In this document: in pieces, positions 1-15,239 of the stretch
Position numbering within the stretch: position 1 is the first letter of the stretch
Layout: the number at the start of each line of letters is the position of its first letter
NCBI GenBank assembly: GCA_028716565.1
Contig: JAQUPL010000001.1
Span: 473,476 to 537,475 of the forward strand
Origin: Candidatus Omnitrophota bacterium
GTDB taxonomy: Bacteria > Omnitrophota > Gorgyraeia > Pluralincolimonadales > Pluralincolimonadaceae
DNA: 64,000 nt
Direction of reading: 5' to 3'
Notes under the pieces: generated by a model
Seen by the model: only the letters and a program-made list of their open reading frames with translations
What the model was told of the DNA's origin: nothing
Databases searched by the model: none
Made by a program: the position numbers and the translations under genes

Positions 1-2139
1 TTCTAAGACATTGTCCAGGCTGCCCCTGAAGACGGGTATTTTACCGGACCTGCAATGGTCATAGACGGTATCATCGGAGGTATCTTCCGAAGTGGCGACG
101 AGCACATTGTCTACCGCGCAGGTTTTGCAGCGCCTGTATACGTATTCAACCAGGGGCACCCCCCCCAGGAGGGACATTACCTTGCCCGGGAACCGGCTGG
201 AGCTCATCCTGGCCTGGATGATTATCGCGCTCGACCGGCCTTTATCATCCCCTATCCCGTTTTTATCTATATATCTCTTCGCCGCGAAGTCCAGTATTTC
301 CCGCGAATTGCCCGTCTTGAGGCTCATCTCCATCACATCCTGTATAAATCTTCCCAGCCTTTTATCCGCATTGAAGTCGCCGAAATGGTTGAACAGCCGC
401 CGCCATTTAGAGAAATCCCCGATCGAACTGTCGCCTTTGCTCGCCCGGATGATGGCATCTTCCATTCCGTCAAGCGTCTTGAAAATGAACTTCTGGCCGG
501 GATCGCCGTAAAACGGGTGCTTCGTCCACCCGGAACAATCCCAATGCAGCACCCTGTTCCCGTGCGCCCCCGCTACGATGCCCGCGGAATTCAGGCCGAA
601 ACAGACCGACAAATCGGTAAGTGCCGCGGCAGTCGCAGGGGATAACCGGTTATCCAGGAAAAAGACCCTGTCCGTTCCCATGAGCGACCGGAATCTGCGC
701 ACTATATCTTTACCGCCGGGCAGAGCCGAGAGGCTGTCGATATCGCCGTTCTTGCTCTTCACGACCGCTCCCCATGACGGGTTCTTTTCAAGAAGGCCCA
801 GGAGAAGCAGGTAGAAGCGCGAAAGCGACAAAGGCGTTTGATGGACATTATGCGCGGCGCTTGAGTCGAATACGGCAAATGTGAATTCGAGGTCTTTCAG
901 CCGGCCCGTTATCCCGCCCGGATCGGCTGCATCTCTGCATATCCACATCCCGGAAGGAAGCCAATAATCACATACCCCCTCCTTCACGGGAAGGAAATCG
1001 TCGAATATCCTGCCCCATTCAAAAAATACGTTGTACGGGAAAAGGTGCGACGGGGTCATCCGGAACGGATAATTGGACCAGTGGAACCCGAGCATTATGC
1101 CCCCTGCCGATCCCATGGCCGCCGCCTGCGCTTCCTGTTTCCAGGACGTGTCCTGGTGTTGGATAAGTATCTTCACCTTAAATTTATTAAAATACGCCGC
1201 ATAGCACGCATTCCAAAAAGCATATTCAAAATCGAACATTCTCAACCAAAACGGCCGGCCATCCGGCTTTACCAGGTCTTTTATAAGCGCGGCTATCGCA
1301 GGGGTGCCTATATCCGACGCTACCGCCCCCAAATGCGCGTCGGCCCACAACTCGCCCCTCTCCTCTATCTCCCCGGTTATTTCATCATTGACAGGGGTAT
1401 CTCCCCTGTCCAGGTAATAAACGATGCCGAAAAGCGATTTATCCACGTTATTTTTCCAGAATGCTAGATCGATGGCACTTTTTTGGTCGTATTCTATCCA
1501 GACCGACGGCCTTATATCGGTAATATTGGACCTGGGAGCGACAGGCATTACTCTTGCCTTCACTGCGCTCTTTACCAGGCTTAATATCGTCCTGGCGCGC
1601 TGCGCATACTCAAACATCCCGCCGGATTCCTTGATTGCAAAACCTCTTTCTTCGTAAAGGCGGCGCAGCATTTCGTTCATAGGATGCCGTTCAAATCTTA
1701 AGATATGGTCTTTATCCCTCATAAGCGCTGCTTTCGACCTGGCAATGACCGCAAATACTATTTTGCCGCGCAAGGACTCCGATATATAACACTTGATCGC
1801 GTTCTTCAACCTTAAAGGCCTGCCGTCGGCATAGGTTTTAACGGCCCTGTCGCCGCACAGGAGCATATCCTCGTTCACCTCATATGCAAGCGTCTCTCCG
1901 TCCGGGCTTTCCTTTTCCAGGGACAGGCTGACGGGAAATACGTTAAGGCCGACCCTGAACCGTTCTGCCAAAGCAAGGATAAAGCGGGCCGGGGCGGAGA
2001 CCGAACGATCTCCGTAATATATTACGCGGCCGGAAAAAGGCCGCGATAAGCCTGCCGCGACCACATCCGGGGCGCCCAATTTTTCCAGCCACAAGGTCTT
2101 GGGACCTTTTTTTTGTGCTGTTGCGCTGCCTGCGGTCAT
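1..2139 (-). CDS. Open-ended fusion ORF (>=713 codons, 3' end beyond window start). About 640 aa N-terminal domain of unknown function, possibly a glycosyltransferase-like domain. Joined in frame to the N-terminal part of a CMP-sugar cytidylyltransferase domain (SpsF/NeuA/PseF family).
   Basis: I checked the minus frame 2139 to 1 triplet by triplet for in-frame TTA/CTA/TCA on the plus strand and found none. ATG at 2139..2137 overlaps the upstream stop as ATGA. The last about 75 codons read AIIIQARMSSSRFPGKV...VATSEDTSDD...IPVFRGSLDNVLE, the classic N-terminus of the CTP_transf_3 cytidylyltransferases. The ORF is not in the supplied track because it has no stop inside the window. Confidence 0.45.
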   Translation of the reverse strand, partial: MTAGSATAQKKGPKTLWLEKLGAPDVVAAGLSRPFSGRVIYYGDRSVSAPARFILALAERFRVGLNVFPVSLSLEKESPDGETLAYEVNEDMLLCGDRAVKTYADGRPLRLKNAIKCYISESLRGKIVFAVIARSKAALMRDKDHILRFERHPMNEMLRRLYEERGFAIKESGGMFEYAQRARTILSLVKSAVKARVMPVAPRSNITDIRPSVWIEYDQKSAIDLAFWKNNVDKSLFGIVYYLDRGDTPVNDEITGEIEERGELWADAHLGAVASDIGTPAIAALIKDLVKPDGRPFWLRMFDFEYAFWNACYAAYFNKFKVKILIQHQDTSWKQEAQAAAMGSAGGIMLGFHWSNYPFRMTPSHLFPYNVFFEWGRIFDDFLPVKEGVCDYWLPSGMWICRDAADPGGITGRLKDLEFTFAVFDSSAAHNVHQTPLSLSRFYLLLLGLLEKNPSWGAVVKSKNGDIDSLSALPGGKDIVRRFRSLMGTDRVFFLDNRLSPATAAALTDLSVCFGLNSAGIVAGAHGNRVLHWDCSGWTKHPFYGDPGQKFIFKTLDGMEDAIIRASKGDSSIGDFSKWRRLFNHFGDFNADKRLGRFIQDVMEMSLKTGNSREILDFAAKRYIDKNGIGDDKGRSSAIIIQARMSSSRFPGKVMSLLGGVPLVEYVYRRCKTCAVDNVLVATSEDTSDDTVYDHCRSGKIPVFRGSLDNVLE
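159..166 (-). repeat. G8 homopolymer tract (C8 on plus strand) inside the cytidylyltransferase-domain coding sequence (codons SLLGGVPL). Candidate slipped-strand site.
   Basis: Plus strand reads cacc cccccc agg, a run of 8 C at 159..166. It lies in frame inside the 1..2139 ORF. Confidence 0.5.
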
Positions 2140-3581
2140 CTCGCGGTCCGGCCCCTCGTTTTTAAATACGTCTCTTCATAATCCTCGATGCGTTTCAAGT
2201 CGCCCTTGACCATCAACTCCCGCAATCCAAGCAGTTCGACCGTATTGAAATTTTTTGAGATATTGCAGGTGATATCCTTGGCGTCGCCCAGGCTCAGCAG
2301 GAAAAGCTGCAGGTCCCCGCCATATTGTTTAAGTATCAGGTCTTTATACGAGTAATACCATTCCGATCCCGGGTACGGCGTCGCAAAAAAAGGATTCGAC
2401 CGTATCCCTAATTTTTTCCAGGCAAGGACGTCAGCCTTGATGCTTTCAAAGGATTCATCCGGGAAACCTATGATCTGGTTCGGGATGGGCCGTATCCCCG
2501 CATCCATAGTCATCGTAACCGCCCTTGAGTTTATCCTGCTGTTTGAACCTTTGCCGGCGGACAAAAGGACCTCGTCCGAAAAAGACTCTAACCCGTAATC
2601 AAGGTGGGAGCAGCCGAGGCCCTTAAGTTTCCTGAGGATATTTTCGTTTACCATCGCGGCATGCGCGGTAGCGCCCCAGTGTATGCCGCGGCAGGATTTA
2701 AGCCATCTCCGCGAAAACTCATCGAACCAGTCTTTGTTCCTGCACAACGCGACAAAATTTTCATCATAAAATGAGACGAAGTCTATCCCGAACCTTTTTT
2801 TGGCCGATCTTACCAGGTCGACGACGTATTCCGGGCTGTGGTGCCTTACCTTACGGCGGCCGGTTATTAAGACATCGCGCCTGCCGTTCGACTCAACGGT
2901 AGACAGCTCACCACTCAACCCTAAATGAAAACAGTATTTGCACCTGAACGGGCAGCCGTAACTCGCCATGACACCGATATGGCGTTTGGCAAGCATCGAT
3001 TCTTCGCTCAAAAGCAGGCTGCTGTTCTGGAAATAGATATCTAAAGGAAAAATATCCCATGCCGGGAACGGCAGGGAATCGACGTCCTCCAAAAGCTCCC
3101 TCTCGCGGTTCAATACCAGGTCGCCGTCCGGGCTGCGATAGATTATCCCTTTTACCCGCGACCAATCGTCCTCTCCCGCGTCGACCGACTTCAGTATCTC
3201 CATCAGCGTAATATACGCCTCCCCGACGATACCTATGTCCACCTCCGGAAGGAATCCCATGACCTCATGCGGTATCGGGGTGATGAATCCCCCTCCGGCG
3301 ACGATAAGGGAGTTTTTAGCCGCCTTACGCGCGATAGAAACGGTTTTCTTGATAAAGCCGTAAGTCGTGACCAGTCCCCCGGTGGCAACCACGTCCCACC
3401 TATCCGCCCGCAATACCGCGTAGATCTCTTTATCCGACGGCCTCCAGGCATTGGCATCAAAGACCTGGACCTTGTGCCCTTCGCGCATAGCCAATGCCGC
3501 CAGCTGGGCCAGCCCGTAAGGAACATGTGCGGGCTTTCCGCTTTCGCGTATTACAGGATTAATGAACAGGACCTTGGCCAT
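2136..3581 (-). CDS. B12-binding domain radical SAM protein (cobalamin-dependent rSAM, class B-like)
   Basis: Probable start MAKVLFINPV at 3581, two nt after the upstream stop. The N-terminal region resembles a cobalamin-binding domain. CPFRCKYC gives the CxxxCxxC radical SAM cluster motif. The track ORF 2136..3731 has a 50-aa N-terminal extension that overlaps the upstream gene. Confidence 0.75.
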   Translation of the reverse strand: MAKVLFINPVIRESGKPAHVPYGLAQLAALAMREGHKVQVFDANAWRPSDKEIYAVLRADRWDVVATGGLVTTYGFIKKTVSIARKAAKNSLIVAGGGFITPIPHEVMGFLPEVDIGIVGEAYITLMEILKSVDAGEDDWSRVKGIIYRSPDGDLVLNRERELLEDVDSLPFPAWDIFPLDIYFQNSSLLLSEESMLAKRHIGVMASYGCPFRCKYCFHLGLSGELSTVESNGRRDVLITGRRKVRHHSPEYVVDLVRSAKKRFGIDFVSFYDENFVALCRNKDWFDEFSRRWLKSCRGIHWGATAHAAMVNENILRKLKGLGCSHLDYGLESFSDEVLLSAGKGSNSRINSRAVTMTMDAGIRPIPNQIIGFPDESFESIKADVLAWKKLGIRSNPFFATPYPGSEWYYSYKDLILKQYGGDLQLFLLSLGDAKDITCNISKNFNTVELLGLRELMVKGDLKRIEDYEETYLKTRGRTAR

Positions 3582-3583
3582 TT

Positions 3584-4588
3584 TCAGGACTTTCTCTTTG
3601 CGAACATATTTAAGACCTCGGACAAGCCGGAAAATATTACGCCCTTGCCGAACAGGATGCCGCCTTCGGTGCAATTGTACGTCCTGCAATTCGCCACTTT
3701 CGCCATCTCCAGGAAACTTTGCGTATACCAATAATAGGCGGGATCGGTAAAACAGGATTGTTTAAGGTGAGGGTTATGCACCTTTATCAATCCGCGCTCC
3801 GGCTCTCCCGGGAATAACTCTTTAAGCACGTCGTAATACTGCGTTTTATCTACGGTAGTGCCGGGAGGATACGAGAGGTCCATGCCCACCACGACCACCT
3901 CGGGGCTTGCCAATACGGCGTGCGAAAATACCCACGCCGACGTGCCGCAGTTGCCTCCCGTGACCATACAAGGCGTCTTGGTTATCTTATGTATCTTCCT
4001 CGAATAGCTTCCGGGATCGTCAAAATCGTCGTAAAGCGGGTTCCACCAGTAAAGCTGCATTCCGGCTTCAAGGCAGCGCCTGGTGATCTCCGGGCTCACG
4101 CTGGTCGAGATGATCACTTTTATCCCGGGTCCGTGGAGGTTTACCAGACGTATCATTTCATCGTTACGCTCGATCTCGTCCTTGTTCAGCGCCGGATCGA
4201 GGTCCTGCCTCCTGAAGTAGTCATCATCGGGCCTCTTGGAGAGGTGCGTATCCCCGAACCAGCGGATGATACGGTGCGGATGCGGGTCCACCGTAATGAC
4301 ATAATCCGGGACGATGCCGTTACGCAAACAGTGCCCCAGCGTCCCGTCCACGGCCACGATGTGCCCTTTAAAATTGCTCTCCTTAATGGCCTTCAGCGAT
4401 CTCCTGCTATGCAGGCTCGGGCCGGCAGAGATGACCAGCGCCGGTTTTGGAGGGACGGGACCGATATCCCTGATGGTCTGTTTTATATACGCGGAGTTTA
4501 ACTTCGCGTGCTTAAGGCCGATCTCCCCGGTCTTCCTTAAAGTGGCCATGGAGATCAGTTCCAATTCTTTCTTATTTAGCTTTTTCAT
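3584..4588 (-). CDS. Maf-like / DUF115 (6-hydroxymethylpterin diphosphokinase MptE-like fold) protein, a putative nonulosonic-acid glycosyltransferase-type accessory factor
   Basis: 334 aa. Motifs PALVISAGPSL...HIVAVDGTL...IVPDYVITVDPHP resemble the DUF115/MAF_flag10 core. It sits between CMP-sugar synthetase and rSAM genes. Confidence 0.45.
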   Translation of the reverse strand: MKKLNKKELELISMATLRKTGEIGLKHAKLNSAYIKQTIRDIGPVPPKPALVISAGPSLHSRRSLKAIKESNFKGHIVAVDGTLGHCLRNGIVPDYVITVDPHPHRIIRWFGDTHLSKRPDDDYFRRQDLDPALNKDEIERNDEMIRLVNLHGPGIKVIISTSVSPEITRRCLEAGMQLYWWNPLYDDFDDPGSYSRKIHKITKTPCMVTGGNCGTSAWVFSHAVLASPEVVVVGMDLSYPPGTTVDKTQYYDVLKELFPGEPERGLIKVHNPHLKQSCFTDPAYYWYTQSFLEMAKVANCRTYNCTEGGILFGKGVIFSGLSEVLNMFAKRKS

Positions 4589-4781
4589 CCGCGTCCCAGA
4601 TGAACTTGTTCGATTTCATCACAAATGCTATGCTCCCCCCGAGCTTTTCCGTCGCCTTCTCCTCGAAAATACCGGTATGGCTGCGGGCAGGTTTTTTGCC
4701 GCTCTTAGATTTTTTGGTTTTTATCTTATAATTCCCGCTCAAGAACCTGTTATTCATCGATAACGACCTCCTTTTTATCAA
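4572..4781 (-). CDS. Small lysine-rich ORF (69 aa) spanning the 160-bp gap between the NeuA-like and Maf-like genes. It may be non-coding.
   Basis: An open frame across a relatively AT-rich intergenic stretch. It has no recognisable domain and its ends overlap both flanking genes. Confidence 0.15.
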   Translation of the reverse strand: MIKRRSLSMNNRFLSGNYKIKTKKSKSGKKPARSHTGIFEEKATEKLGGSIAFVMKSNKFIWDADEKAK

Positions 4782-5484
4782 GCAAGAACTCGGCGAATAT
4801 CAGGTCGATAGGCTCATCGATATCGACCGATGAAAGATCTGACATCACATGCGCCCCGGTATTTTTCGAGATAATGACCCCTTCCTCGAAAAGGGCCTGC
4901 CTCCTTGTAGCGTAAGCAGCGCCGTTAGGGATAACTAGTTTTGGCAGGGACTGGAAGACGCCTCTTTCCCCTTCCATCTTTCCTCCCAGTAGGAGCTCGG
5001 CGCGGCCCCCGTCCTTGACCCCGAACATCCACTCCGGCCTTTCTTTCACCTGTCTCGACGTAAATGCCGACATCATCCCCTCATCCTTGAGCAGCAGGTC
5101 GACGCAGGCATCTATGTCGCAAGCGCGGCAAAACGGCGTGGTCGGCTGCATGGTCACCGCAATATCTATTTTTTTAGATTCCTGCGATTCCACGAATTCA
5201 ACGGCATGCTTTGTGACCCACTCCGAAGGACAATCTTCCGCAAGGTTTTGAGGCCTCACGAAAGGCGCTTCAGCGCCGCATTCCAAGGCTATCTTCTTGA
5301 TCTCCGGGTGGTCGGTGGAGACGATCACCCTCCTAAGGCAGTTACTTCCCAAGGCGGCCCTGATCATATAGGAGACTAAAGGCTTTCCTCCTAAAAGCGC
5401 GATGTTCTTTAGCGGTATCCTCTTCGACCCTCCGCGCGCGTGGATCACCCCGATAATGTTAAGCCCGTTGTCTTTTTTTACCAT
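4750..5484 (-). CDS. N-acylneuraminate (nonulosonate) cytidylyltransferase, CMP-sugar synthetase (NeuA/LegF/PseF family)
   Basis: 244 aa with the motif IIGVIHARGGSKRIPLKNI, the CTP_transf_3 N-terminal signature. Confidence 0.8.
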   Translation of the reverse strand: MVKKDNGLNIIGVIHARGGSKRIPLKNIALLGGKPLVSYMIRAALGSNCLRRVIVSTDHPEIKKIALECGAEAPFVRPQNLAEDCPSEWVTKHAVEFVESQESKKIDIAVTMQPTTPFCRACDIDACVDLLLKDEGMMSAFTSRQVKERPEWMFGVKDGGRAELLLGGKMEGERGVFQSLPKLVIPNGAAYATRRQALFEEGVIISKNTGAHVMSDLSSVDIDEPIDLIFAEFLLDKKEVVIDE

Positions 5485-6848
5485 TTGTACCCCAGGTCTG
5501 TTTTTACGGATCTTCCCCTTAATTCCGCTAAATTACCGAAAATCTTCTTGAACGCGGCGACCACATCCCTCATGTCATCCCTCCCGTTAGGGCGGTTGAT
5601 ATGATAGAACCATATGAATTTTTCTTTTATCAGGTCTTCCGCAACGGGACAATCGCCTCTCTTGTATTCCCTTTTGGCCTTGTACAAATGGCATGACCAT
5701 GGGCAATGGCCCTTACCGAAGGCGATCTTCCTCAGGAAAATAGGATTATCATACATGGTCTTTAAATATCCGGATCCCGCAGGTATCCCCTCGGCTTTCA
5801 GGGCCGCCAACACCTTGGCCCTTTCTACGCCGGTCTTTGCCTTGTCATAGATCAGGGGGAAGACATGGGGTATCACCCCCTCCTGAAGCTCTACGGCGCT
5901 CAAGCCCGGCAGGCCTTTTAATCCCTTGCTCAAGGAGCGGTAATTACGCAACCTTTCGGAGTTGTTCCTGTCCAATTTTTTAAGCTGGGCTATCCCCACG
6001 GCTGCGGTTAATTCCGTCATCCTGAAATTCATCCCGACAATATTGCTCAATGACCCTTCGTCCCAAGAGATATCCGGCACCGATTCGCCGTGGTTGCGTA
6101 TAAGGCGCGCCTTCCTGGCCAGCCCGGGATCATTTGTTATTACCATCCCTCCCTCGCCGGTCGTGATATTTTTCGTCTCCTGGAAACTGAAAACGCCGAG
6201 ATCGCCGATAGTCCCGACAAACCTGTTCTTATATTTTGTCCCGGGCGCCTGGGCGCAATCCTCGATGATCGCCAGGCGGTGCTTCCTGGCAATGCGCAAA
6301 ATGGCGTCCATATCGGCCGGGTTCCCCAATAGGTGCACCGCCAGGATCGCTTTTGTCCTTTTAGTTACCGCCTTCTCGACACACCTGGGATCAAGGCAAA
6401 AGTTTTTCGGGTCCACATCTACAAATACCGGTATGGAATTAAACATAAGGATGCTCAAGGCTGTGGCATTGAAAGACAGGCACGTGGTAATGACCTCATC
6501 CCCGGGCCCGATCCCGGCGGCCCCTAACGCGGTAGAAAGGCCTGAAGTGGCGGAGTTGACGGAGACGGCATACTTGACCTTGAGTTTCCCGGCGAAATCG
6601 GCCTCGAACCTCCTGACCATCTTACCCCCTAGGAAAGAAAAATACTGGCCCCGGTAATTGAGCGCGTCTTTTGACGGCATGACAAGCAGCTTCCCTATGT
6701 CCCGGGTCGGGCTGCCCATGAAACGGGAGAGCTCTTTATTCTTCATCACCTCCCTGACATAACGCCATTCGTCCCCGTCGATCACCACGGAATTATGGAA
6801 TGGCTTCTTGCGCACGGGCTTGCCGCCGGTTAACGCTAAACAAGACAT
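5478..6848 (-). CDS. DegT/DnrJ/EryC1/StrS family PLP-dependent sugar aminotransferase (long form with C-terminal extension)
   Basis: 456 aa. Motifs KVKYAVSVNSATSGL, AIIEDCAQAPG and a PLP-lysine region FSFQETKNITTGEGG. Confidence 0.8.
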   Translation of the reverse strand: MSCLALTGGKPVRKKPFHNSVVIDGDEWRYVREVMKNKELSRFMGSPTRDIGKLLVMPSKDALNYRGQYFSFLGGKMVRRFEADFAGKLKVKYAVSVNSATSGLSTALGAAGIGPGDEVITTCLSFNATALSILMFNSIPVFVDVDPKNFCLDPRCVEKAVTKRTKAILAVHLLGNPADMDAILRIARKHRLAIIEDCAQAPGTKYKNRFVGTIGDLGVFSFQETKNITTGEGGMVITNDPGLARKARLIRNHGESVPDISWDEGSLSNIVGMNFRMTELTAAVGIAQLKKLDRNNSERLRNYRSLSKGLKGLPGLSAVELQEGVIPHVFPLIYDKAKTGVERAKVLAALKAEGIPAGSGYLKTMYDNPIFLRKIAFGKGHCPWSCHLYKAKREYKRGDCPVAEDLIKEKFIWFYHINRPNGRDDMRDVVAAFKKIFGNLAELRGRSVKTDLGYKW

Positions 6849-6852
6849 GACC

Positions 6853-7707
6853 TTATTGACCTGCCTTCCTGGCGATTATGACCAGCCTGTCGGCTTTGCG
6901 GATGTCCAGTGACGTAAGCCGCAAAAATAACCAATTATATATCCTGGATACGAACCCGGTTAAGGCGGGTATCAGCCCCAGGCCGTAAGGCAACAGGTCC
7001 GCGCTGTTGATCCCCATGACCTTGACGACCCGGAAACCCGTCTTTCCCAGGCAATATCTTAAAGAATCCGCCGTGGGGATCCCCTGTACGTAATCCCCGT
7101 AACGCTCAAAACACGAATATTTATTATAGTAGCGCGACTTGCCCTGATGGCATTTAATGGCCAAAAATCCGTCCTTTTCCAGCATACCGTTTATTTTTTC
7201 CAGGCTCTCTCTCAGGTCGGTGAAATAGTAGCAGCTTTCCAATACCGAGATCAAAGAATATTTTCTCCGCATCAATTCCCCGGGGATATCGTCCGGGAAA
7301 CTGCCCGTATATACTTTCAGACCCTGTTCCCGCGCGCATTCGGCCGCCTTTTCCTGCGGCTCCAGCCCGTACGCGTCGAAGCCGAGTCCTTCCAATACAT
7401 GGCAAAACCCGCCGGTAAAAGTACCTATATCAAGCGCGGCGCCTTTGTCCCTGACTGTCTTCCCGATAAGGACGGCCGCCAGGTCCGGTCTCTGCTTTCT
7501 TGGGTCCGCGCAACAGATATCCGCCCCGGTCTCCCCAGCGCGCGAAAGATATTCCCCGCATTCATTCCCGTCTGCGCGCGGATAGGGATATAAGGTGCCG
7601 CATTCATCGCATATCCTGATATCCCTTTTCTGCCCGTCGCGCAGTCCCTGGTCCTTTTTATACAACGCGGCGCTCCGGTGATGGCAGAACGGGCAGTCGT
7701 AAAGCAT
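6853..7707 (-). CDS. Class I SAM-dependent methyltransferase with N-terminal Cys4 zinc-ribbon
   Basis: 284 aa. CPFCHH...CDECG zinc ribbon. LDIGTFTGGF glycine-rich SAM motif. Confidence 0.65.
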   Translation of the reverse strand: MLYDCPFCHHRSAALYKKDQGLRDGQKRDIRICDECGTLYPYPRADGNECGEYLSRAGETGADICCADPRKQRPDLAAVLIGKTVRDKGAALDIGTFTGGFCHVLEGLGFDAYGLEPQEKAAECAREQGLKVYTGSFPDDIPGELMRRKYSLISVLESCYYFTDLRESLEKINGMLEKDGFLAIKCHQGKSRYYNKYSCFERYGDYVQGIPTADSLRYCLGKTGFRVVKVMGINSADLLPYGLGLIPALTGFVSRIYNWLFLRLTSLDIRKADRLVIIARKAGQ

Positions 7708-7708
7708 G

Positions 7709-8701
7709 TTAGAACTTTATTGAAACCGGCCTTGACCCGTTACTTGCGGAAGCCAACAGAGCCTGGCTCATGCTGAGGGCAATCAACCCGTCCTCGCCGG
7801 AACAGTTGACCGACCGTTTCCTGTGCATCAGGACTTTAGCGATATCGTCAACCGCTTCGATAAAGCGGTCTTTACGGGGCAACGGCCTTGCCGGGGCCGG
7901 CGTCAACTCCATATATCCCGAGTACCTGCGGCTCTTCCTGAAGACCGATAGATCCAGTTTTCCGCCGTTCTCCGTGATCTTCACTCTCCCTTTGTCGCCG
8001 ATTATGTCGACTTCGAAGACGAGGTTTTCCCGTTTGTTCAATACGTTGATCGTGCAGGGGATCTTCCCGTTAAAGATCATCCAACCCGAGACACCGGGAT
8101 CTTGCTTACCCGGATCGAAAGAGACGCCGGAGACGGTTTCAGGATCCGCGGATATAAGGAAACGGACAATATCAAAAAGGTGCGTCCCGATATTGAATAC
8201 CTGCGCGGGATATAAACAGTTCACTGCGGTCACTTTCCCGATCCTGCCGCCATCTATGGCCTTTTTGGCGGCCAAATAACCGGATTCCCACCTTCTCGTA
8301 TGATTTACCGCGAGCAGGATCCCTTTTTTACGGCACAAGTTTACCATTTCCCGGGCTTCCCGTAACGAAGAGGCAACCGGTTTTTCGCAAAATACCGCTT
8401 TTACCCCGGAACGCGACAGTTCTTTCAATATAGGATAATGGGTAGCGGTAGGCGTGCATATGGAGACGATCTCCGGCGAGGTTTTCCTCATCAGCTCACT
8501 TACGCTGCCGAAGACAGGGACCTTCTTGTGCCGTTCCTTAAAAAGCCTTACGGTCCCGGGATCGATCTCCACCGCGCCCGCAAGCCTTGTATATCCCGAT
8601 TTTTCATAAGCGGCGACATGGCTCCAAACCCCTTTCCTGAGAGGATCGAGGCTGAACCGGAAACCTATGTTCCCTAAACCGATAACCGCGCTTGTGTACA
8701 T
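7709..8701 (-). CDS. Gfo/Idh/MocA family NAD(P)-dependent oxidoreductase
   Basis: 330 aa. N-terminal Rossmann motif SAVIGLGNIGFRF. EKP motif CEKPVASS typical of the family. Confidence 0.8.
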   Translation of the reverse strand: MYTSAVIGLGNIGFRFSLDPLRKGVWSHVAAYEKSGYTRLAGAVEIDPGTVRLFKERHKKVPVFGSVSELMRKTSPEIVSICTPTATHYPILKELSRSGVKAVFCEKPVASSLREAREMVNLCRKKGILLAVNHTRRWESGYLAAKKAIDGGRIGKVTAVNCLYPAQVFNIGTHLFDIVRFLISADPETVSGVSFDPGKQDPGVSGWMIFNGKIPCTINVLNKRENLVFEVDIIGDKGRVKITENGGKLDLSVFRKSRRYSGYMELTPAPARPLPRKDRFIEAVDDIAKVLMHRKRSVNCSGEDGLIALSMSQALLASASNGSRPVSIKF

Positions 8702-8731
8702 TGTTTTGCTTTAACGCCCTTTTCTCTGGTC

Positions 8732-9397
8732 CTACCAGACCTCTTTTAGTATCATGAACGCCTCTGCGTATTTAAACCCGGCAGAAGCTCCCCGGAACAG
8801 GGCCAGCGCCTCGATATTCTTCTCGCTCCTCGGGAAAGGGTGTCTCTTCATTTCTCCCTTGTAAATACGCATGATCCCTATTTTTTTCTTCAGGTAACCG
8901 GAGATATCCGAAAAACTGTTCGGGACGAAACTCTTCCCCCTTAAAGGCAGGCGGGATTCGGTCTCGGAAAGCACTTCATACATCAGGACCTTTTTCACCG
9001 AGGGCGCGCGGAATGATTTCACCGCGCTTTGCACGGCATCAAAAGCTACCTGGTGGTCGGAATGCGCGTCGCAGTGGTACGGCGCATAGACCCAGGACGG
9101 GGCAAGGTGCGCGATCGCGCCATGCACCGCTTTTACAAGCTCGGAACGCGCAACCGTGTCAAGTCTGGTGGTCGGGAAATCAAGTTTTATCACCTTCGAA
9201 AAACCGTATCTCTTCGCGACAGCGGTGATCTCGCGCTGGCGGGAATTCACCCTGCTCTTGGGATAACCGGCTGCCTCGGAAACATTGGTCAGGATCAGCC
9301 AGGATACTTTATCATTTTTAGCCCGGTGCTTTAAGAGCGTCCCGCCGCAGCCTAAAGTTTCGTCATCGGGATGGGGCGATACGACTAAAATGTTCAT
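8732..9397 (-). CDS. PIG-L/LmbE family N-acetylglucosaminyl deacetylase
   Basis: 221 aa. Signature VVSPHPDDETLGCGGT and HxDH motif region. Confidence 0.8.
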   Translation of the reverse strand: MNILVVSPHPDDETLGCGGTLLKHRAKNDKVSWLILTNVSEAAGYPKSRVNSRQREITAVAKRYGFSKVIKLDFPTTRLDTVARSELVKAVHGAIAHLAPSWVYAPYHCDAHSDHQVAFDAVQSAVKSFRAPSVKKVLMYEVLSETESRLPLRGKSFVPNSFSDISGYLKKKIGIMRIYKGEMKRHPFPRSEKNIEALALFRGASAGFKYAEAFMILKEVW

Positions 9398-9410
9398 GGT
9401 CTGCCTCTCA

Positions 9411-10565
9411 TTAATAGGTCATCTTTTTTTGCAACAGGCGTTTTCCCTGCGCTGCCTTTTCGAGCTCATCGGCGATCTTTTCGGCGGCCCTGCCGCTGCC
9501 GTAAGGATTGCGGCAGTTCCTTACCTTCCTTAAGAAGGCCTTGTCGGAAACGGCCTTGCGCAACGCTTCCAGGATAGCCCTCTTTTTGTAGGGCACATCG
9601 ATCACGTTCTCCGCCCTGAGCCTCCCCTGCTGGCGGCTGCCGATATTTATACACGCAACTTTAAAGACCGGCGTTTCCATGATGCCGCTGCTGGAATTTC
9701 CCGCTACCGCAGAGGCGATCCTTAATATCCCGAAATAATTCTTCCACCCCAGGCTTTTCCTTATCCTGAAGTGCGGCACCCGGGCATACTCCTTTATCGC
9801 CTTGATCATCCGGTCGCCGCCCGCGTCGTTGCAAGGATAGGTAATTACCGTCTGGCGGCCGAATTCTTTCAGCGCCTCCAGGCTCTCCTTGATCTGTCCG
9901 TAGGCAAGAGCGCTTTCGGTGGTCACGGGATGCTGGGTGAATACTATCACCTGCTTGCCGGGATCGATCTTGAGTTCACGGGCCAGTTCCTGCGGCCCGG
10001 CGTATTCGCCCGATAAATAATTGTCGATGGCGGTCGAACCGACATTAAAAACCCTCCACTTTTCCTCCCCCAGGCCCAATACCCTAAGGTATGAATCCTG
10101 GTTAGAAACGAAGTGCAGGTGCGAAAGCTTGGTGATGCTGTGCCTTACCGAATCATCGAGATTTCCGCCCTGGGAAAGATCACCGCCGAAAAGATGAGCG
10201 ATCGGAATGTTAGAGTAAAAAGCCGCTATCGCCATCGCGTATGTCTCGTAGCGGTCCCCGGCCAAGACAAGGATATCCGGACGCATCGCGCCAAGCAGCC
10301 GCGCGCCTTTCTTTACCAATTCGGCGAAGACGGGAAGCACGTTATCAGGCGTGCCTGGCTGGGATAGATAAACATTTTTGGCCTTAAGCCTGTCCGGATA
10401 TTCGATCTCGGAGTGGGTATTTCCGAACCTTTCCGATAAATGGCTGCCCGAGATGATCAGCCTGACATCAAAATTCCGTCTCGATAAGAGTTCTTTGACC
10501 AAAGGCCGCAAGAGACCGTATTCGGCGCGGTTTCCTGTAAAAAGCGCGATTTTTTTCTTATGCAT
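9411..10565 (-). CDS. UDP-N-acetylglucosamine 2-epimerase (hydrolysing), NeuC/LegG family
   Basis: 384 aa. ALFTGNRAEYGLL...HLFGGD...VGNSSSG motifs typical of NeuC-type hydrolysing 2-epimerases. Confidence 0.8.
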   Translation of the reverse strand: MHKKKIALFTGNRAEYGLLRPLVKELLSRRNFDVRLIISGSHLSERFGNTHSEIEYPDRLKAKNVYLSQPGTPDNVLPVFAELVKKGARLLGAMRPDILVLAGDRYETYAMAIAAFYSNIPIAHLFGGDLSQGGNLDDSVRHSITKLSHLHFVSNQDSYLRVLGLGEEKWRVFNVGSTAIDNYLSGEYAGPQELARELKIDPGKQVIVFTQHPVTTESALAYGQIKESLEALKEFGRQTVITYPCNDAGGDRMIKAIKEYARVPHFRIRKSLGWKNYFGILRIASAVAGNSSSGIMETPVFKVACINIGSRQQGRLRAENVIDVPYKKRAILEALRKAVSDKAFLRKVRNCRNPYGSGRAAEKIADELEKAAQGKRLLQKKMTY

Positions 10566-11349
10566 GCTTATTCCCGCGGACCACTACCATCTCCTTGGAA
10601 ATATCCCATGAGCCAAGACGGACCGAATCAATTTTTTCCCTGCTGGGATCGATGCCGGTCTTCTCGCGGGTTTCCTCAAAAAGCAGCGTGGCAGTATAAT
10701 AACGGATAAATTCGCTTTTATCCGGGAACTTCAATTTGCAGGGAATGATCTCCTTTTCCGCCGCCCCGAAAATATTTTTCACAGCCGGATAGAATTCCTT
10801 TTCGAGGCGTGAACTCCTCAAGGCCGCCTTTTCATCCATTGCGTAATCCAAGCCAAAAACCTTCTTATTGAACTCATACAGCTCTTTGGCGTTATTTTCC
10901 GTAGGGCCGATGAGAAAAACTTCACCGCCGGGTTTCAAGACTCCCTTGATGTCATTAATGACCGCTTCCGCGTCATCCGCGTAATAGATGGAGAAAGCGG
11001 CGATCACACGATCAAAGGTATTTTCAAGGAAAGGAAGCCTGTTGTTCATGTCCCACTGCAGAAGCAGCGGCGTAAAACCGGCGGCCGCTTTCCGGGCCTG
11101 TAAAAGCAGTTCTCTTGACTTGTCGACACCGACTATCCCTCCCCCGCCATTAAGTTTTTTTAAATAGGCCGGGAATAAGTTCCCGTTCCCGCAGCCGATG
11201 TCAAGGATCAAGCCGCCTTTCGCGCCCGGCAAACGGGTCTCCAGCCAATCCTCGAGGCTAAAGCTGGAGAAACGCTTGTGTGCTTCTATCCTGGCGCTTA
11301 AATTTTTCTGGCTTTCGTTATAGCCGAGGCCTTGTGCCGTTTTCGTCAT
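10558..11349 (-). CDS. Class I SAM-dependent methyltransferase
   Basis: 263 aa. ILDIGCGNGNL SAM-binding motif. Overlaps neighbouring genes by 8 and 4 nt. Confidence 0.7.
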   Translation of the reverse strand: MTKTAQGLGYNESQKNLSARIEAHKRFSSFSLEDWLETRLPGAKGGLILDIGCGNGNLFPAYLKKLNGGGGIVGVDKSRELLLQARKAAAGFTPLLLQWDMNNRLPFLENTFDRVIAAFSIYYADDAEAVINDIKGVLKPGGEVFLIGPTENNAKELYEFNKKVFGLDYAMDEKAALRSSRLEKEFYPAVKNIFGAAEKEIIPCKLKFPDKSEFIRYYTATLLFEETREKTGIDPSREKIDSVRLGSWDISKEMVVVRGNKHA

Positions 11350-12350
11350 AAGGTCACCAGCTCATCTTTTTTGAAATTCTTATTAGCCGGCCTGCCAAGC
11401 AGCTTTTCATAGATCACCGGACTCAAGCCGTTGCCGGGCCTTTTTACCGTTATGTTATGGACGGTAAACCTGTCTCCCTTCGCTATGTCCGCGGCAGCTA
11501 CGATGCTTTTCCTGGCAATCTTCCTGTTATTTAATTCGGAGGGCGCAGGTCTTTTGACCCCGTCGCCGAGGGCCGTTTCTATATTGCGGACCGCCTTGAC
11601 CATGGCCCTGAATTCATCCGGTTCAAGGGATGCCTTATGGTCGGGACCGGGCAGGTCCCTGTCCAAAGTAAAATGCTTTTCGATCACAGCCGCGCCTAAT
11701 GCGGCTGCGGCGATAGACACCTCGATGCCCTGCGTATGGTCTGAATAACCCACCTGCACCCGTAGCCTGTTCTTGAGCGTAAGCATGGCGCGCAAATTTA
11801 CTTCATCCATGGGAGCGGGATATTCGGTGGTGCAATGCAGTACGGTGATATCCTCAGGCCTTGTCCCGGAACCGGTAAGGATCCCCATGGCAAAACGCAC
11901 TTCTTTCAGGTCGGACATCCCCGTGGAAAGGATGACCTTTCTTTTAAGCCTCCCGATCTTCCTTAGATACGGCAGGTTGTTTATCTCCCCGGAAGGCACC
12001 TTGAATATCTTCAGTCCGAGGCCCGCCAGGAAATCCACGCTCTTCAGGTCGAACGGCGAAGAAAGAAAGATCACCTTCTTCTTCCGGCAACGCCGCAGTA
12101 ATTCCTTATGGGCGTCGGGGCCAAGCTCCAGCTTTTTTATCATCTCCAGCTGGCTCCCGGTATTGCCCGTGGCTGCCTTCTGGTAAGCGGCCTTAGGCGC
12201 GTACGTGGAGACCAGGGATTCCGCGCTGAATGTCTGGAATTTGACTGCGTCTGCGCCTGCATCTGCCGCGGCATCCACCATCCTCATCGCGACCTTTAGC
12301 GAACCGTTGTGGTTGACCCCGGCTTCGGCAATAATGAATATTTTATGCAT
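11346..12350 (-). CDS. N-acetylneuraminate synthase family enzyme (NeuB/LegI/PseI)
   Basis: 334 aa. FIIAEAGVNHNGS start, the TIM-barrel of the NeuB family, and a C-terminal SAF/antifreeze-like domain. Confidence 0.85.
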   Translation of the reverse strand: MHKIFIIAEAGVNHNGSLKVAMRMVDAAADAGADAVKFQTFSAESLVSTYAPKAAYQKAATGNTGSQLEMIKKLELGPDAHKELLRRCRKKKVIFLSSPFDLKSVDFLAGLGLKIFKVPSGEINNLPYLRKIGRLKRKVILSTGMSDLKEVRFAMGILTGSGTRPEDITVLHCTTEYPAPMDEVNLRAMLTLKNRLRVQVGYSDHTQGIEVSIAAAALGAAVIEKHFTLDRDLPGPDHKASLEPDEFRAMVKAVRNIETALGDGVKRPAPSELNNRKIARKSIVAAADIAKGDRFTVHNITVKRPGNGLSPVIYEKLLGRPANKNFKKDELVTL

Positions 12351-12990
12351 TTTGTTTCATTTCTTTGCAAGGGTTGCCGTAAGCGACCACGCCTTTGCGT
12401 ATGTCGCCGGTGACGACACTGCCCGCGCCTACTACCGTCATTTCCCCTATCTTTACATTCTGGATCACAATGCTTCCCGTGCCGATATGGGAATGGCTGC
12501 CAATGCTTACGCCGCCGCTTAGCAACGCCCCGGGTGAAAGATGCACAAAATCGCCGATCTTGCAGTCATGTTCTACGATAGCACCCGTATTAAGTATGCA
12601 GTTGTCGCCTATACGGGAGCCTGCGTTAACGATCACCCCGGGAGCGATAAAATTGCCCTGCCCAAGGACAGAGCGGGAAGATACCAGCGCATACGGGCTG
12701 ACCAGGTTTGGGAATACGAACCCGGATCTCCTCGCGAGGTTATAGAGTTTAACGCGCAAACGGGTATCACCGACGCTTCCTGCTGAAATAAAACAGTGTT
12801 TTACGCCTTTTCCGGAGAATCGCGGCAGGTCGGTATCGGAGCCGCTTACCGGCACCCCGAAGACCTTCTCCCCGATGCGCTGCTTTACGTCAATTATCCC
12901 GGCGACTTCATATTCTTTAGCGGACAGCAGCAGGTCCAAGACTACCTTGCAATGCCCTCCGGCGCCTATTAGCAATATTTTTTTCTTCAT
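12343..12990 (-). CDS. Sugar O/N-acetyltransferase, NeuD/PglD/LegH family (left-handed beta-helix)
   Basis: 215 aa. N-terminal Rossmann-like motif KILLIGAGGH. C-terminal hexapeptide repeats. Confidence 0.75.
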   Translation of the reverse strand: MKKKILLIGAGGHCKVVLDLLLSAKEYEVAGIIDVKQRIGEKVFGVPVSGSDTDLPRFSGKGVKHCFISAGSVGDTRLRVKLYNLARRSGFVFPNLVSPYALVSSRSVLGQGNFIAPGVIVNAGSRIGDNCILNTGAIVEHDCKIGDFVHLSPGALLSGGVSIGSHSHIGTGSIVIQNVKIGEMTVVGAGSVVTGDIRKGVVAYGNPCKEMKQNA

Positions 12991-12996
12991 ATCAAG

Positions 12997-14067
12997 TTAA
13001 GCCTCGAACTTCTTCAGCATCTCCTGCAAGGCCTCAAACTGCCCCATATCCAGCCACGATTTTTCAGAGACCGGATAGACCCCTATCTTTTCCTTCTTCT
13101 CGATATAGTCCCCGATAAGGTCGGTTATATTGTAAAACCGGTTCTTGGGGATATCACCAAGGACCGAGGCGTCCAAAAGATACATGCCTGTATTTACCAG
13201 GAAGTCATATTCGGGTTTTTCCCTGATGTCCCTGAGGGCCCCGCCTATCCCGATATCGCAGACGCCGTAAGGGATCGTAAAATTCTTCATCGAGCTCACG
13301 AGGGTGATCTTGTTCTTCTTCTCGTTGTGGAACCTCAGTATATCGGTGTAATCCGCCTCGATGAGTATGTCGCAATTGCTCACGAAAAAAGTCTTCTTTA
13401 TCCTGTTCTTCAGCAAGTGGAGGCTTCCTGCGGTGCCCAGGGGTTTGCTTTCAAGGATATAGTTAATCTTGTATTTATGCTCGAAATCACTGAAATACGC
13501 CTTGATCATGTTCGATTTGTAATTCAGCGAAAGGTAGAAATCGTCGCAGCCGTAATCAAAGAACCTGTCGATGATGATCTCTATGATCGGTTTATCGCCG
13601 ATAGGCATCAACGGCTTAGGCAGGACTTTGGTGAACGGATGGAGGCGCACCCCTTCTCCTCCCGCCATGACCACTACCGGGAGCTTCAGTGACTTGTGGT
13701 TCTTCGGTTTGGCCTCAAAAAGGTCCACCCATGAGATGGAGGCGACGACCCTTCTAGTCCCGTCGACCACCGGCAAGCATTCGACTTGGCGCTGGATCAT
13801 CAGGTCCTTCGCGCCTTCCCTGGAAAAACCCTCCTTCAGGACCAGGGGACGGCAGTTCATCGCTTTCTCAAGGCTTTCGCCGAGGCCTTTCCCCTTCAGG
13901 ATCCATCTCCGGATATCGCCGTCGGTGATCGTACCCGCGATCTTCTTCCGGTCATCCACGACGATAAGCGTCTTCTCCCCCATGGCATCCATCTGCTTCA
14001 ATGCCTGCTTGATGCTGCATTTGGGACTTACCAAGACTTTCTTCAATCTTTCCGTCATATCAGTCAC
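12997..14067 (-). CDS. CBS-domain pair fused to a sugar-phosphate nucleotidyltransferase (PtmE-like NTP-transferase)
   Basis: 356 aa. Tandem CBS repeats are followed by VVMAGGEGVRLHPFTKVLPKPL, the NTP_transferase G-rich loop. The architecture matches the GlcN-1-P guanylyltransferase of the GDP-route legionaminic acid pathway. Confidence 0.7.
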   Translation of the reverse strand: MTDMTERLKKVLVSPKCSIKQALKQMDAMGEKTLIVVDDRKKIAGTITDGDIRRWILKGKGLGESLEKAMNCRPLVLKEGFSREGAKDLMIQRQVECLPVVDGTRRVVASISWVDLFEAKPKNHKSLKLPVVVMAGGEGVRLHPFTKVLPKPLMPIGDKPIIEIIIDRFFDYGCDDFYLSLNYKSNMIKAYFSDFEHKYKINYILESKPLGTAGSLHLLKNRIKKTFFVSNCDILIEADYTDILRFHNEKKNKITLVSSMKNFTIPYGVCDIGIGGALRDIREKPEYDFLVNTGMYLLDASVLGDIPKNRFYNITDLIGDYIEKKEKIGVYPVSEKSWLDMGQFEALQEMLKKFEA

Positions 14068-15226
14068 CCCTCCCTAGGCCCCGGATAGCTGAGGTTACCC
14101 GCCTTATCTGTCTCAAATCGAGGTTTGTGCTGCACGGCAGGTTTAGTACGCGCCTCCAATACCGCGGCGCCTTTTCGATTTTATATGCCTGGTTCCTGAG
14201 ATACGGCCTCTGGAGGTGGTTCAGGTACCATACCGGCCTTGTCTGTATGCCCTTCGCCAGCAGGTGCCTCATCGTCTTGTCCCTGTCCGCGCCGAATAGC
14301 TCCTTTTCGATGACCAGCGAATAGAACCAGTAATTCGGCGCCGTGCCTTCCGGGACCCCCAACATCCCGGCCCCTTTGACCCCCTTTAGCAGTTTTTTAT
14401 ATACCGCGTAATTGTCCTTCTTCACCCTTATGAAACCTTTCAACCGTTCGAGCTGCGCCAGGCCGACAGCGGCCTGTAAATTGGTCAGGCGGAAATTGTA
14501 GCCGACCTCATTATGGAGATGTTTTACAGGGTCATCCTTGGCTTGTTCCGTCAGGTACTTTCCTTTTTTCGCCAACAGCCCGTTATCGGTCACGATCATC
14601 CCTCCGCCGCCGGTGGTTATTATCTTGTTCCCGTTAAACGAATATACGCCGATGTCGGAAACTGTCCCCGTGAACCTGCCCTTATAAGCGCCGGAGGTGT
14701 AATATGCCCCCAGGCTTTCGGTCGCGTCCTCGATGACCTTAAGGCGGTACTTCCTGGCGATCTTCATTAGTTCTTCCATGTCGCAGGGGTTCCCAAAGAT
14801 ATGGACCGGGATAATCGCCTTGACCACCCTTCCGGTCTTTTTGTTCCTTAACCCTGCTTTAGTGGCCGTGCATTCCTTAGCGCAAAATTCCCGGACTTTT
14901 ACGCAATCGATATTCAAATAATCGTCGCAGTCCATAAAGACCGGTTCCGCGCCGAGGTATTTGACGACATTGACCGGCGCGATAAATGTAAGCGTCGGCA
15001 CGATCACCTCATCGTCCCTGCCGGCTCCGCAAAGGGCAAGCGCGATATGAAGGCCCGCTGTGCCGTTTACGCAGGCGACCGCATGTTTGGCTTTTACGTA
15101 GCGGCAGACGGCGTCCTCGAAATCCTTTACAAAACCTCCGGAAGAAGATACCCAGTTGGTCTCGACGCACTTCTTGAGGTACTGCAGTTCCCTGCCGCTC
15201 AGGTTTGGGACGGAAAGTGGGATCAT
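14060..15226 (-). CDS. DegT/DnrJ/EryC1/StrS family sugar aminotransferase (LegC/PglE-like)
   Basis: 388 aa. HAVACVNGTAGL, VIEDATESLG, and SFNGNKIITTGGGG containing the PLP lysine. Confidence 0.8.
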   Translation of the reverse strand: MIPLSVPNLSGRELQYLKKCVETNWVSSSGGFVKDFEDAVCRYVKAKHAVACVNGTAGLHIALALCGAGRDDEVIVPTLTFIAPVNVVKYLGAEPVFMDCDDYLNIDCVKVREFCAKECTATKAGLRNKKTGRVVKAIIPVHIFGNPCDMEELMKIARKYRLKVIEDATESLGAYYTSGAYKGRFTGTVSDIGVYSFNGNKIITTGGGGMIVTDNGLLAKKGKYLTEQAKDDPVKHLHNEVGYNFRLTNLQAAVGLAQLERLKGFIRVKKDNYAVYKKLLKGVKGAGMLGVPEGTAPNYWFYSLVIEKELFGADRDKTMRHLLAKGIQTRPVWYLNHLQRPYLRNQAYKIEKAPRYWRRVLNLPCSTNLDLRQIRRVTSAIRGLGRGD

Positions 15227-15239
15227 TTTTTAAGGGTCA

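Follow-up and report, generated by a model that had tools for sequence, protein, structure and literature searches.

Fusion of an uncharacterised module with a predicted GT-B fold to an SpsF/FlmC-type cytidylyltransferase in a nonulosonic acid gene cluster of Omnitrophota

The left end of a 64,000-nucleotide stretch of contig JAQUPL010000001.1 from a Candidatus Omnitrophota bacterium (positions 473,476 to 537,475; hereafter the window) raises the question of whether two enzymes that are normally encoded by separate genes are combined there in a single polypeptide, and what such a polypeptide would do. On the minus strand, translation from an ATG at 2139 to position 1 gives 713 codons with zero stops, and the remaining five frames over 1-2139 contain 9-43 stops each. 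An initial annotation, made from the letters alone, had already described this stop-free frame and remarked that it was missing from the list of open reading frames (ORFs). Both statements hold: the frame is unlisted because it runs off the window, and the ORF lister omits such frames. We propose that the gene encodes a bifunctional enzyme, specific to this lineage, that converts a nonulosonic acid (NulO) to its activated cytidine monophosphate (CMP) form and would also transfer it, a reading to which we give about an even chance.

Extending the locus leftward, as the initial annotation had advised, recovered the whole gene. It continues for 459 nucleotides past the left edge of the window and encodes a product of 866 residues, and the window thus holds codons 1-713, the 5' 82% of the gene. 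A protein search identified an 866-residue entry (P0001) that is 100% identical to the window frame. P0001 corresponds in NCBI nr to MDD5072701.1 / MDD5546007.1, "NTP transferase domain-containing protein", from metagenome-assembled genomes (MAGs) of Candidatus Omnitrophota; the sequence is therefore already public under a generic name. The gene and its parts in the window are:

1 to 2139, minus strand: in-window part of the fused gene, codons 1-713 of 866 (open frame and 100% identity to P0001)
1 to 228, minus strand: first 76 residues (638-713) of an SpsF/FlmC-type cytidylyltransferase domain that spans residues 638-866 in full (Pfam CTP_transf_3)
229 to 246, minus strand: fusion junction with the linker DKGRSS, residues 632-637 (alignment to stand-alone homologues)
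247 to 2139, minus strand: N-terminal module, residues 1-631, of a rare, uncharacterised family of ~640 residues (AlphaFold2 model and homologues)

We refer to the two halves as the N-module and the C-domain, and to the N-module with its relatives as the N-family. Could the continuous frame be an artefact of sequencing or assembly, in which a 1-2 nucleotide indel or a chimeric join has merged what are in truth two genes? Indels are possible in MAG assemblies, every other family member is a separate gene, and a sequencing frameshift was one of the options raised in the initial annotation. However, the fusion gene is also found at L001:10001-12601, on NCBI contig JAQTRV010000004.1 of GCA_028711645.1, and at L002:1601-4201, in an independent Logan assembly of SRR22315508. 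The window differs from L001 by 4 mismatches in 12,139 nucleotides and is identical to L002 over the overlap. The window, GCA_028711645.1 and the Logan assembly carry the same 866-residue frame; a third MAG record, protein MDD5310567.1 (P0288), is identical at 864 of 866 positions, with 2 substitutions. A more distant copy occurs in another Omnitrophota MAG (P0168, MFA5339109.1, locus L013). This protein is cut by the contig end and is 88% identical to the window protein. Its junction reads ...AAKRYIERNGIRDDKGRLSAIIIQARMSSSRFPGKV, compared with ...AAKRYIDKNGIGDDKGRSSAIIIQARMSSSRFPGKV in the window protein, and the same junction (GIRDDKGRLSAIIIQAR) is thus present in both. The shared 840 nucleotides contain 98 substitutions between the two genes, of which 58 fall at third codon positions, and no indel. 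An artefact is also difficult to reconcile with two properties of the junction itself. A separate C-domain would have no start codon, and the tail typical of N-family proteins is gone instead of being displaced into another frame. The same junction in a 12%-diverged genome and in independent assemblies therefore excludes a frameshift or chimera for practical purposes. We regard an artefact as very improbable and the fusion as almost certainly real.

Comparison of the two fusion-bearing genomes gives a ratio of nonsynonymous to synonymous substitution rates (dN/dS) of 0.15 over the final 42 codons of the N-part and of 0.21 over the C-domain; for nine downstream genes of the same genome pair the ratio is 0.04-0.15. 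Both sides of the junction are under purifying selection. The divergence between L013:3-10842 and L001:11762-22212 forms a mosaic, with dS values of the neighbouring genes from 0.09 (methyltransferase) to 0.76 (HisF) and a dS of ~1.0 for the last 42 N-module codons, which suggests recombination within the cluster.

Alignment to stand-alone homologues shows what was exchanged at the junction. The six-residue linker stands in for the 8-20 residue tail and the stop codon of stand-alone N-family proteins, and it also replaces the first 7-15 residues, start codon included, of stand-alone SpsF-type proteins. The stand-alone homologues of the C-part (P0169, P0171, P0172 and P0174) start 7-15 residues ahead of the AIIQAR motif, for example with MKETKSAVIIQAR; on the SpsF side, the fusion therefore cost only the start codon and a few residues. 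The initial annotation had noted no obvious start codon just before the cytidylyltransferase domain, and there is no in-frame ATG, GTG or TTG from codon 605 to Met645, which itself lies within the catalytic ...QARMSSSRFPGK motif. It had also estimated the unrecognised part at about 640 residues. That part has indeed remained unmatched in our searches, although its boundary lies at about residue 631 and is followed by the linker. A scan of window 1-5000 for promoters and terminators gave matches at or below chance. One weak sigma-70-like match lies on the junction, at 221-248 on the minus strand (ATGATA, a 16-nucleotide spacer and GATAAT; 9 of 12 positions). It is probably meaningless, such matches being at chance level in the region, although it may be a remnant of an earlier intergenic region.

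How widely is the fused form distributed? The N-part has 18 close homologues with 32-59% identity, each of them a stand-alone protein of 592-659 residues. Two partial relatives, P0020 and P0021, are 64-66% identical. An exhaustive profile search with the N-family against 1.84 billion cluster representatives returned 1314 relatives at E<=1e-3, 230 of them at E<=1e-30, and the full-length entries among the best 150 of the 1314 are all stand-alone proteins of 590-725 residues. On the other side, 119 of the 120 best homologues of the C-part stand alone, with 185-297 residues (typically ~235), and the single exception is P0168, a partial copy of the same fusion. A scan of JGI (Joint Genome Institute) metagenomes with the full protein, using query-exact peptide patterns that can reach close relatives only, found no further fused copies. 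Among the relatives examined, the fused architecture thus appears to be confined to a narrow Omnitrophota lineage, and since the relatives of both parts are otherwise stand-alone, we consider the fusion to be lineage-specific. The initial annotation had called the architecture unusual, had listed a recent gene fusion among its explanations and had advised a comparison of fused and split gene pairs. The comparison supports the first two points: the relatives are split, and no other fused form is present among them. A stand-alone 651-residue N-family gene with 58% identity was observed in a second organism (L004, Logan SRR22315508 contig 337400) from the same sample as the fused gene in L002; it comes after an orthologue (61% identity) of the gene that precedes the fusion gene in the window. 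One community therefore contains both the fused and the unfused form.

The C-domain is the more readily interpreted half. Residues 638-712 match the Pfam profile CTP_transf_3 (PF02348) at positions 1-74 of 217 (E 1.9e-16; 61 bits against a cut-off of 22.6), in agreement with the cytidylyltransferase N-terminus that had been recognised in the last ~75 codons of the frame. KdsB-type NCBIfam models also match the in-window stretch, below their cut-offs, and both PF02348 and PF12804 are precomputed for the full 866-residue protein. The C-domain aligns end to end with a chain labelled "cytidylyltransferase" in the PDB (6oew_A; E 1e-21; query residues 9-229 of 237 with residues 12-232 of the 250-residue chain). 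This alignment, together with the domain's own stop codon, indicates that the C-domain is complete and not a fragment. The nucleotide-binding motif IIQARMSSSRFPGK (residues 639-653) lies inside the window and fits the pattern (I/V)xxARxxSxRxPxK. The D-x-P motif after β-strand 5, CADTPFVD, lies outside it. In HMMER alignments these two segments correspond to the KdsB motifs IPARYGSSRLPGK and GDEPMI, and the ARxxSxRxPGK and D-x-P signatures are both kept.

The closest homologues of the C-domain are labelled by their sources as SpsF, FlmC or "cytidylyltransferase domain-containing". The C-domain resembles the SpsF/FlmC type (Bacillus subtilis SpsF, PDB 6OEW) in being 47-66% identical to stand-alone proteins so labelled and, like spsF, it sits in a NulO cluster (PMC7439481). 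It differs from them in having no start codon of its own and in being joined covalently to a 631-residue N-terminal module. No match was found between the C-domain and TIGR03584 (PseF; cut-off 205.7 bits), and only KdsB-type models were reached, at 44-66 bits; judged by these scores, it is not a PseF equivalog. In a B. subtilis spsF mutant, legionaminic acid is still made and accumulates, but is not transferred to the spore surface, and SpsF has been assigned to the final step of the pathway, in which the sugar is activated with CMP (PMC7439481). Family membership, the intact motifs and the B. subtilis genetics together suggest that the C-domain makes CMP-NulO, and we consider it a likely active cytidylyltransferase.

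As proposed in the initial annotation, residues 1-636 were searched for known domains, and no Pfam or NCBIfam match was found even at E<=10. An AlphaFold2 model computed from a 19-sequence alignment has a mean predicted local distance difference test score (pLDDT) of 87.2 and a predicted template-modelling (TM) score (pTM) of 0.86. In the model, an additional α/β domain (~1-200) precedes the N-terminal half (~205-400) and the C-terminal half (~415-570) of a glycosyltransferase-B (GT-B) arrangement, followed by C-terminal helices (577-626). The two halves are Rossmann-like α/β domains that face each other, and the C-terminal helices cross back, as in GT-B enzymes. A Foldseek search of the PDB returned only GT-B-fold enzymes at probability 1.00, with E-values of 2e-7 to 1e-4, including OtsA, uridine diphosphate-N-acetylglucosamine (UDP-GlcNAc) 2-epimerases such as NeuC, plant and bacterial UGTs, MshA, glycogen synthase and the CMP-bound capsule polymerase Bcs3. 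The model and these matches make it highly probable that the N-module has a GT-B fold. In a model of the full-length protein, the C-domain has a pLDDT below 50, which makes that model uninformative on domain packing.

In 123 full-length N-family sequences, Gly397, Asp425, Lys461 and Arg594 are invariant and Ser355, Trp375, Lys463 and Asp588 are nearly so, and the fused protein retains all eight. Eight of 19 close relatives (best E 1.2e-9; ~26-40 bits) and several distant ones match TIGR04417, "polysaccharide biosynthesis PFTS motif protein", whose cut-off is 100 bits; the window protein gave no match to this model at E<=10. PF27878 is precomputed in ten N-module relatives, and TIGR04417 and PF27878 are probably equivalent. 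The N-family resembles TIGR04417 in being an uncharacterised protein of surface-polysaccharide loci, but it has ~640 residues and an extra N-terminal domain, compared with ~520 residues in TIGR04417. By these profile matches, the N-family is a remote relative of TIGR04417 and not a member. No paper on the N-family, TIGR04417 or PF27878 was found in a literature search. Sequence comparisons to other families gave similar negatives: a PDB sequence-profile search with the N-family found no relevant match, and hhalign comparisons of the N-family with TagF/Capsule_synth-like, LIC12162-family and Epimerase_2 proteins gave probabilities below 1%.

In each of the 12 loci with an N-family gene, NeuB and/or CTP_transf_3 genes are found within 8 kb; the loci represent at least 6 phyla or lineages and come from Omnitrophota, Nitrospirota, Gallionellaceae, an Olavius Delta 4 endosymbiont, Planctomycetales and unassigned metagenome contigs. 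A transferase role for the N-module is suggested by its fold, by this strict association with NulO clusters and by the fusion. In the mechanism that we propose, two normally separate genes of NulO (legionaminic/pseudaminic-type) clusters became one in a narrow lineage. The ~640-residue GT-B-fold protein would have lost its stop codon and C-terminal tail and the SpsF-type cytidylyltransferase its start codon, with the linker joining the halves. The C-domain would convert cytidine triphosphate (CTP) and a free NulO from the cluster to CMP-NulO, and the N-module would use this labile CMP-sugar as the donor to place the NulO onto an acceptor glycan or protein. The fusion would give 1:1 stoichiometry and proximity of activation and transfer. 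What each half catalyses, which sugar is used and whether it is channelled are inferences in this scheme. That the N-module is a CMP-NulO-dependent transferase is plausible, with a likelihood that we place slightly short of even. More tentatively still, the whole ~640-residue family may be an unrecognised class of such enzymes, a new glycosyltransferase family, with the fusion as a natural "Rosetta stone" that hands the CMP-sugar directly to the transferase. The initial annotation had suggested a transferase combined with an activating enzyme; our analysis supports the bifunctional part of this suggestion, and the putative transferase part is consistent with the GT-B fold.

Two NulO transferases of Tannerella forsythia offer a functional model for the N-module. 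Tanf_01245 and TFUB4_00887 are GT-B/TagB-like, are encoded beside a CMP-Pse or CMP-Leg locus and are genetically required for the terminal NulO (PMC5420450). They are stand-alone proteins of ~445 residues with a recognisable TagB/GT-B domain in CDD and strict D/E-D/E-G and HP motifs (PMC5420450). In contrast, the N-module has no detectable sequence similarity to TagF-like proteins, and its HP motif is partly conserved. Precedents also exist for a CMP-ulosonic-acid synthetase linked covalently to another enzyme that uses the same sugar. A fusion of CMP-Neu5Ac synthetase and sialyltransferase has been engineered, and the natural bifunctional NeuA combines a synthetase with an esterase. The esterase of NeuA is C-terminal of the synthetase, whereas the partner in Omnitrophota is N-terminal and has a predicted GT-B fold. 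A literature search found no paper on natural synthetase-transferase fusions.

Several observations weigh against a transferase that acts on the product of its fused partner. No activity is known for any N-family member. The N-part matches no CAZy-type glycosyltransferase family in Pfam, and its link to TIGR04417, a model that is itself uncharacterised, runs only through matches of its relatives that score below the cut-off. The fused protein has an HP dipeptide of the sialyltransferase type (His541-Pro542), but across the 123 N-family sequences it is only partly conserved (His in 73, Pro in 102). Position 370 (window 1030-1032) is His in 18 of 18 close relatives and Asn in the fused protein, which may reflect an adaptation or a relaxation specific to the fused form. 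We rejected Asn370 as a sign of an inactivated N-module: the position is occupied by His in 75, Asp in 36, Gln in 6 and Asn in 4 of the 123 sequences of the wider family, and the truly invariant residues are kept.

Further points of this kind arise from the structural matches and the neighbouring genes, of which the following lie directly upstream of the fusion gene:

2136 to 3731, minus strand: B12-binding radical S-adenosylmethionine (radical-SAM) gene (Pfam B12-binding and Radical_SAM), whose stop overlaps the start of the fusion gene
3584 to 4588, minus strand: MptE-like gene of 334 residues with a Maf/PseD core (Pfam PF01973, NCBIfam FlagModPseD)
4750 to 5484, minus strand: separate PseF/LegF-like cytidylyltransferase (TIGR03584 at 137 bits, below 205.7)

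The B12-binding radical-SAM gene ends in a TGA that forms an ATGA overlap with the ATG of the fusion gene at 2139, and the stop of the fusion gene likewise overlaps the start of the next gene (radical-SAM/SPASM) as ATGA; the overlaps at both ends imply operon-type coupling. The B12-binding radical-SAM product has 531 residues from a TTG start, and public annotation uses a start that gives 481 residues. This gene also precedes stand-alone N-family genes (L004, L005, L006 and L008). The MptE-like gene is conserved beside it in L004 and L008. The MptE-like protein matches only profile positions 228-279 of 640 in the flagellin-modification protein PseD/Maf, and it is a candidate for a minimal or truncated NulO transferase of the Maf type.

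These data bear on whether the N-module might process a nucleotide sugar instead of transferring one. It could resemble PseG or NeuC/LegG and act as a hydrolase or epimerase, or serve as a partner to the B12-binding radical-SAM enzyme, in which case the real fusion would combine two steps of biosynthesis. Among the enzymes of NulO pathways, PseG and NeuC have a GT-B fold, and the highest target-normalised TM-scores of the N-module model are to UDP-GlcNAc 2-epimerases including NeuC 5xvs (0.56-0.61), not to transferases. Translational coupling to the B12-binding radical-SAM gene is seen here and in L004, and with the MptE/Maf-like protein the cluster already holds another candidate transferase. 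However, an Epimerase_2 enzyme is already encoded at window 9411-10565, and likewise in L009 and L011, and hhalign of the N-family profile against the cluster epimerase finds nothing. With 640 residues and an extra domain, the N-module is also far larger than PseG or NeuC, and four invariant basic residues would suit the phosphate and carboxylate of a CMP-ulosonic acid. We therefore consider such a processing role unlikely, at slightly better than one chance in five.

The arrangement of the relatives raises a further possibility, that the fusion is real but a neutral accident. A recurring block consists of GFO_IDH, DegT, PseF-like, in some cases MptE, B12-binding radical-SAM and N-family genes, and it ends at the N-family gene in L003, L004, L007 and L008. 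The stand-alone SpsF homologues nearest to the C-domain head another block, with AsnB, NeuB, GT2, HisH/HisF and WbuX (L014 and L015). The two conserved blocks meet at the fusion gene, and the fusion point thus marks where two sub-clusters join. The N-family gene of most relatives accompanies a PseF/LegF-like and not an SpsF-like synthetase; in BLASTP, the cytidylyltransferase at 4750-5484 and the C-domain are similar only in a 30-residue N-terminal motif. The halves may thus serve different sugars, the N-module pairing with the upstream PseF/LegF-like synthetase and the C-domain with the downstream NeuB/AsnB/WbuX module, as independent domains with no channelling. The presence of the fusion in one narrow lineage only fits this as well. 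On the other hand, the junction has been kept, with purifying selection on both sides, across a dS of ~0.3-1.0, an observation that is still compatible with neutrality. N-family and SpsF-type genes also co-occur in split form: L009 has an N-family gene, NeuB and then an SpsF-like gene, in L010 an SpsF-like gene lies 4.4 kb upstream of the N-family gene, and in L014 an SpsF gene and a 614-residue member of the N-superfamily (hmmsearch, 108.7 bits) lie 4 kb apart. A neutral fusion, and with it this assignment of the halves to different synthetase and pathway modules, has in our judgement about one chance in five.

If the halves are indeed independent, the gene would simply be two neighbouring pathway genes that were joined in one lineage, as happens often in evolution. 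The enzymes that attach legionaminic/pseudaminic-type sugars are much less known than the enzymes that make them, and a 2017 study on Tannerella called the knowledge of cognate NulO transferases scarce (PMC5420450). Both halves of the protein are of recognisable kinds. New here are the architecture, unique among the relatives examined, and the functional link that it provides for a sizeable NulO-cluster-specific family. The fusion physically links an uncharacterised family with at least 1314 cluster representatives, strictly associated with NulO clusters, to a CMP-sugar synthetase, which turns the function of the whole family into a specific hypothesis that is open to test. As a single polypeptide, the fusion protein is also a candidate for activating and transferring NulOs in one pot.

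The surrounding cluster is rich in NulO genes; our gene annotation covers the first 18 kb of the window. From 16220 to 1, a single operon on the minus strand encodes a complete pathway from guanosine diphosphate (GDP)/UDP-N-acetylhexosamine to a legionaminic-type sugar, together with tailoring enzymes and the fusion gene. The pathway genes encode a 4,6-dehydratase, a DegT aminotransferase, a CBS-nucleotidyltransferase (PtmE-like), a PglD-like acetyltransferase, NeuB and Epimerase_2. The operon continues with methyltransferases, a PIG-L deacetylase, GFO/IDH, a second DegT, the PseF/LegF-like synthetase, the MptE-like protein, the B12-binding radical-SAM protein and the fusion gene. Past the left edge of the window follow radical-SAM/SPASM, DegT, a nucleotide-sugar dehydrogenase, an AsnB-like protein, HisH/HisF with the WbuX amidotransferase, a methyltransferase and a second NeuB. 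Overall, the cluster (1-16220 and L001:12598-22601) contains three DegT genes in the window and a fourth just beyond, at least five methyltransferases, two radical-SAM genes and the WbuX/HisH/HisF set. This content suggests that two or more heavily tailored NulOs are made.

In relatives, the N-family gene is followed by an adenosine triphosphate-binding cassette (ABC) exporter (ABC_membrane and ABC_tran; L003:9871-11715 and L005:7633-9465) and, at L005:5732-7567, by a putative transferase of the LIC12162 family; the window's cluster has neither gene at the equivalent site. An origin of the fusion by deletion of ABC-transporter genes between N-family and CTP_transf_3 genes, as arranged in L003 and L005, was considered and rejected: the cytidylyltransferases there are PseF-like, and their similarity to the C-domain is limited to the ~30-residue N-terminal motif. 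From 8000 to 64000 of the window, the minus strand carries almost every long ORF, and the few on the plus strand overlap longer minus-strand ORFs and look spurious. Together with the stretch 1-8000, this amounts to ~64 kb of unbroken co-orientation.

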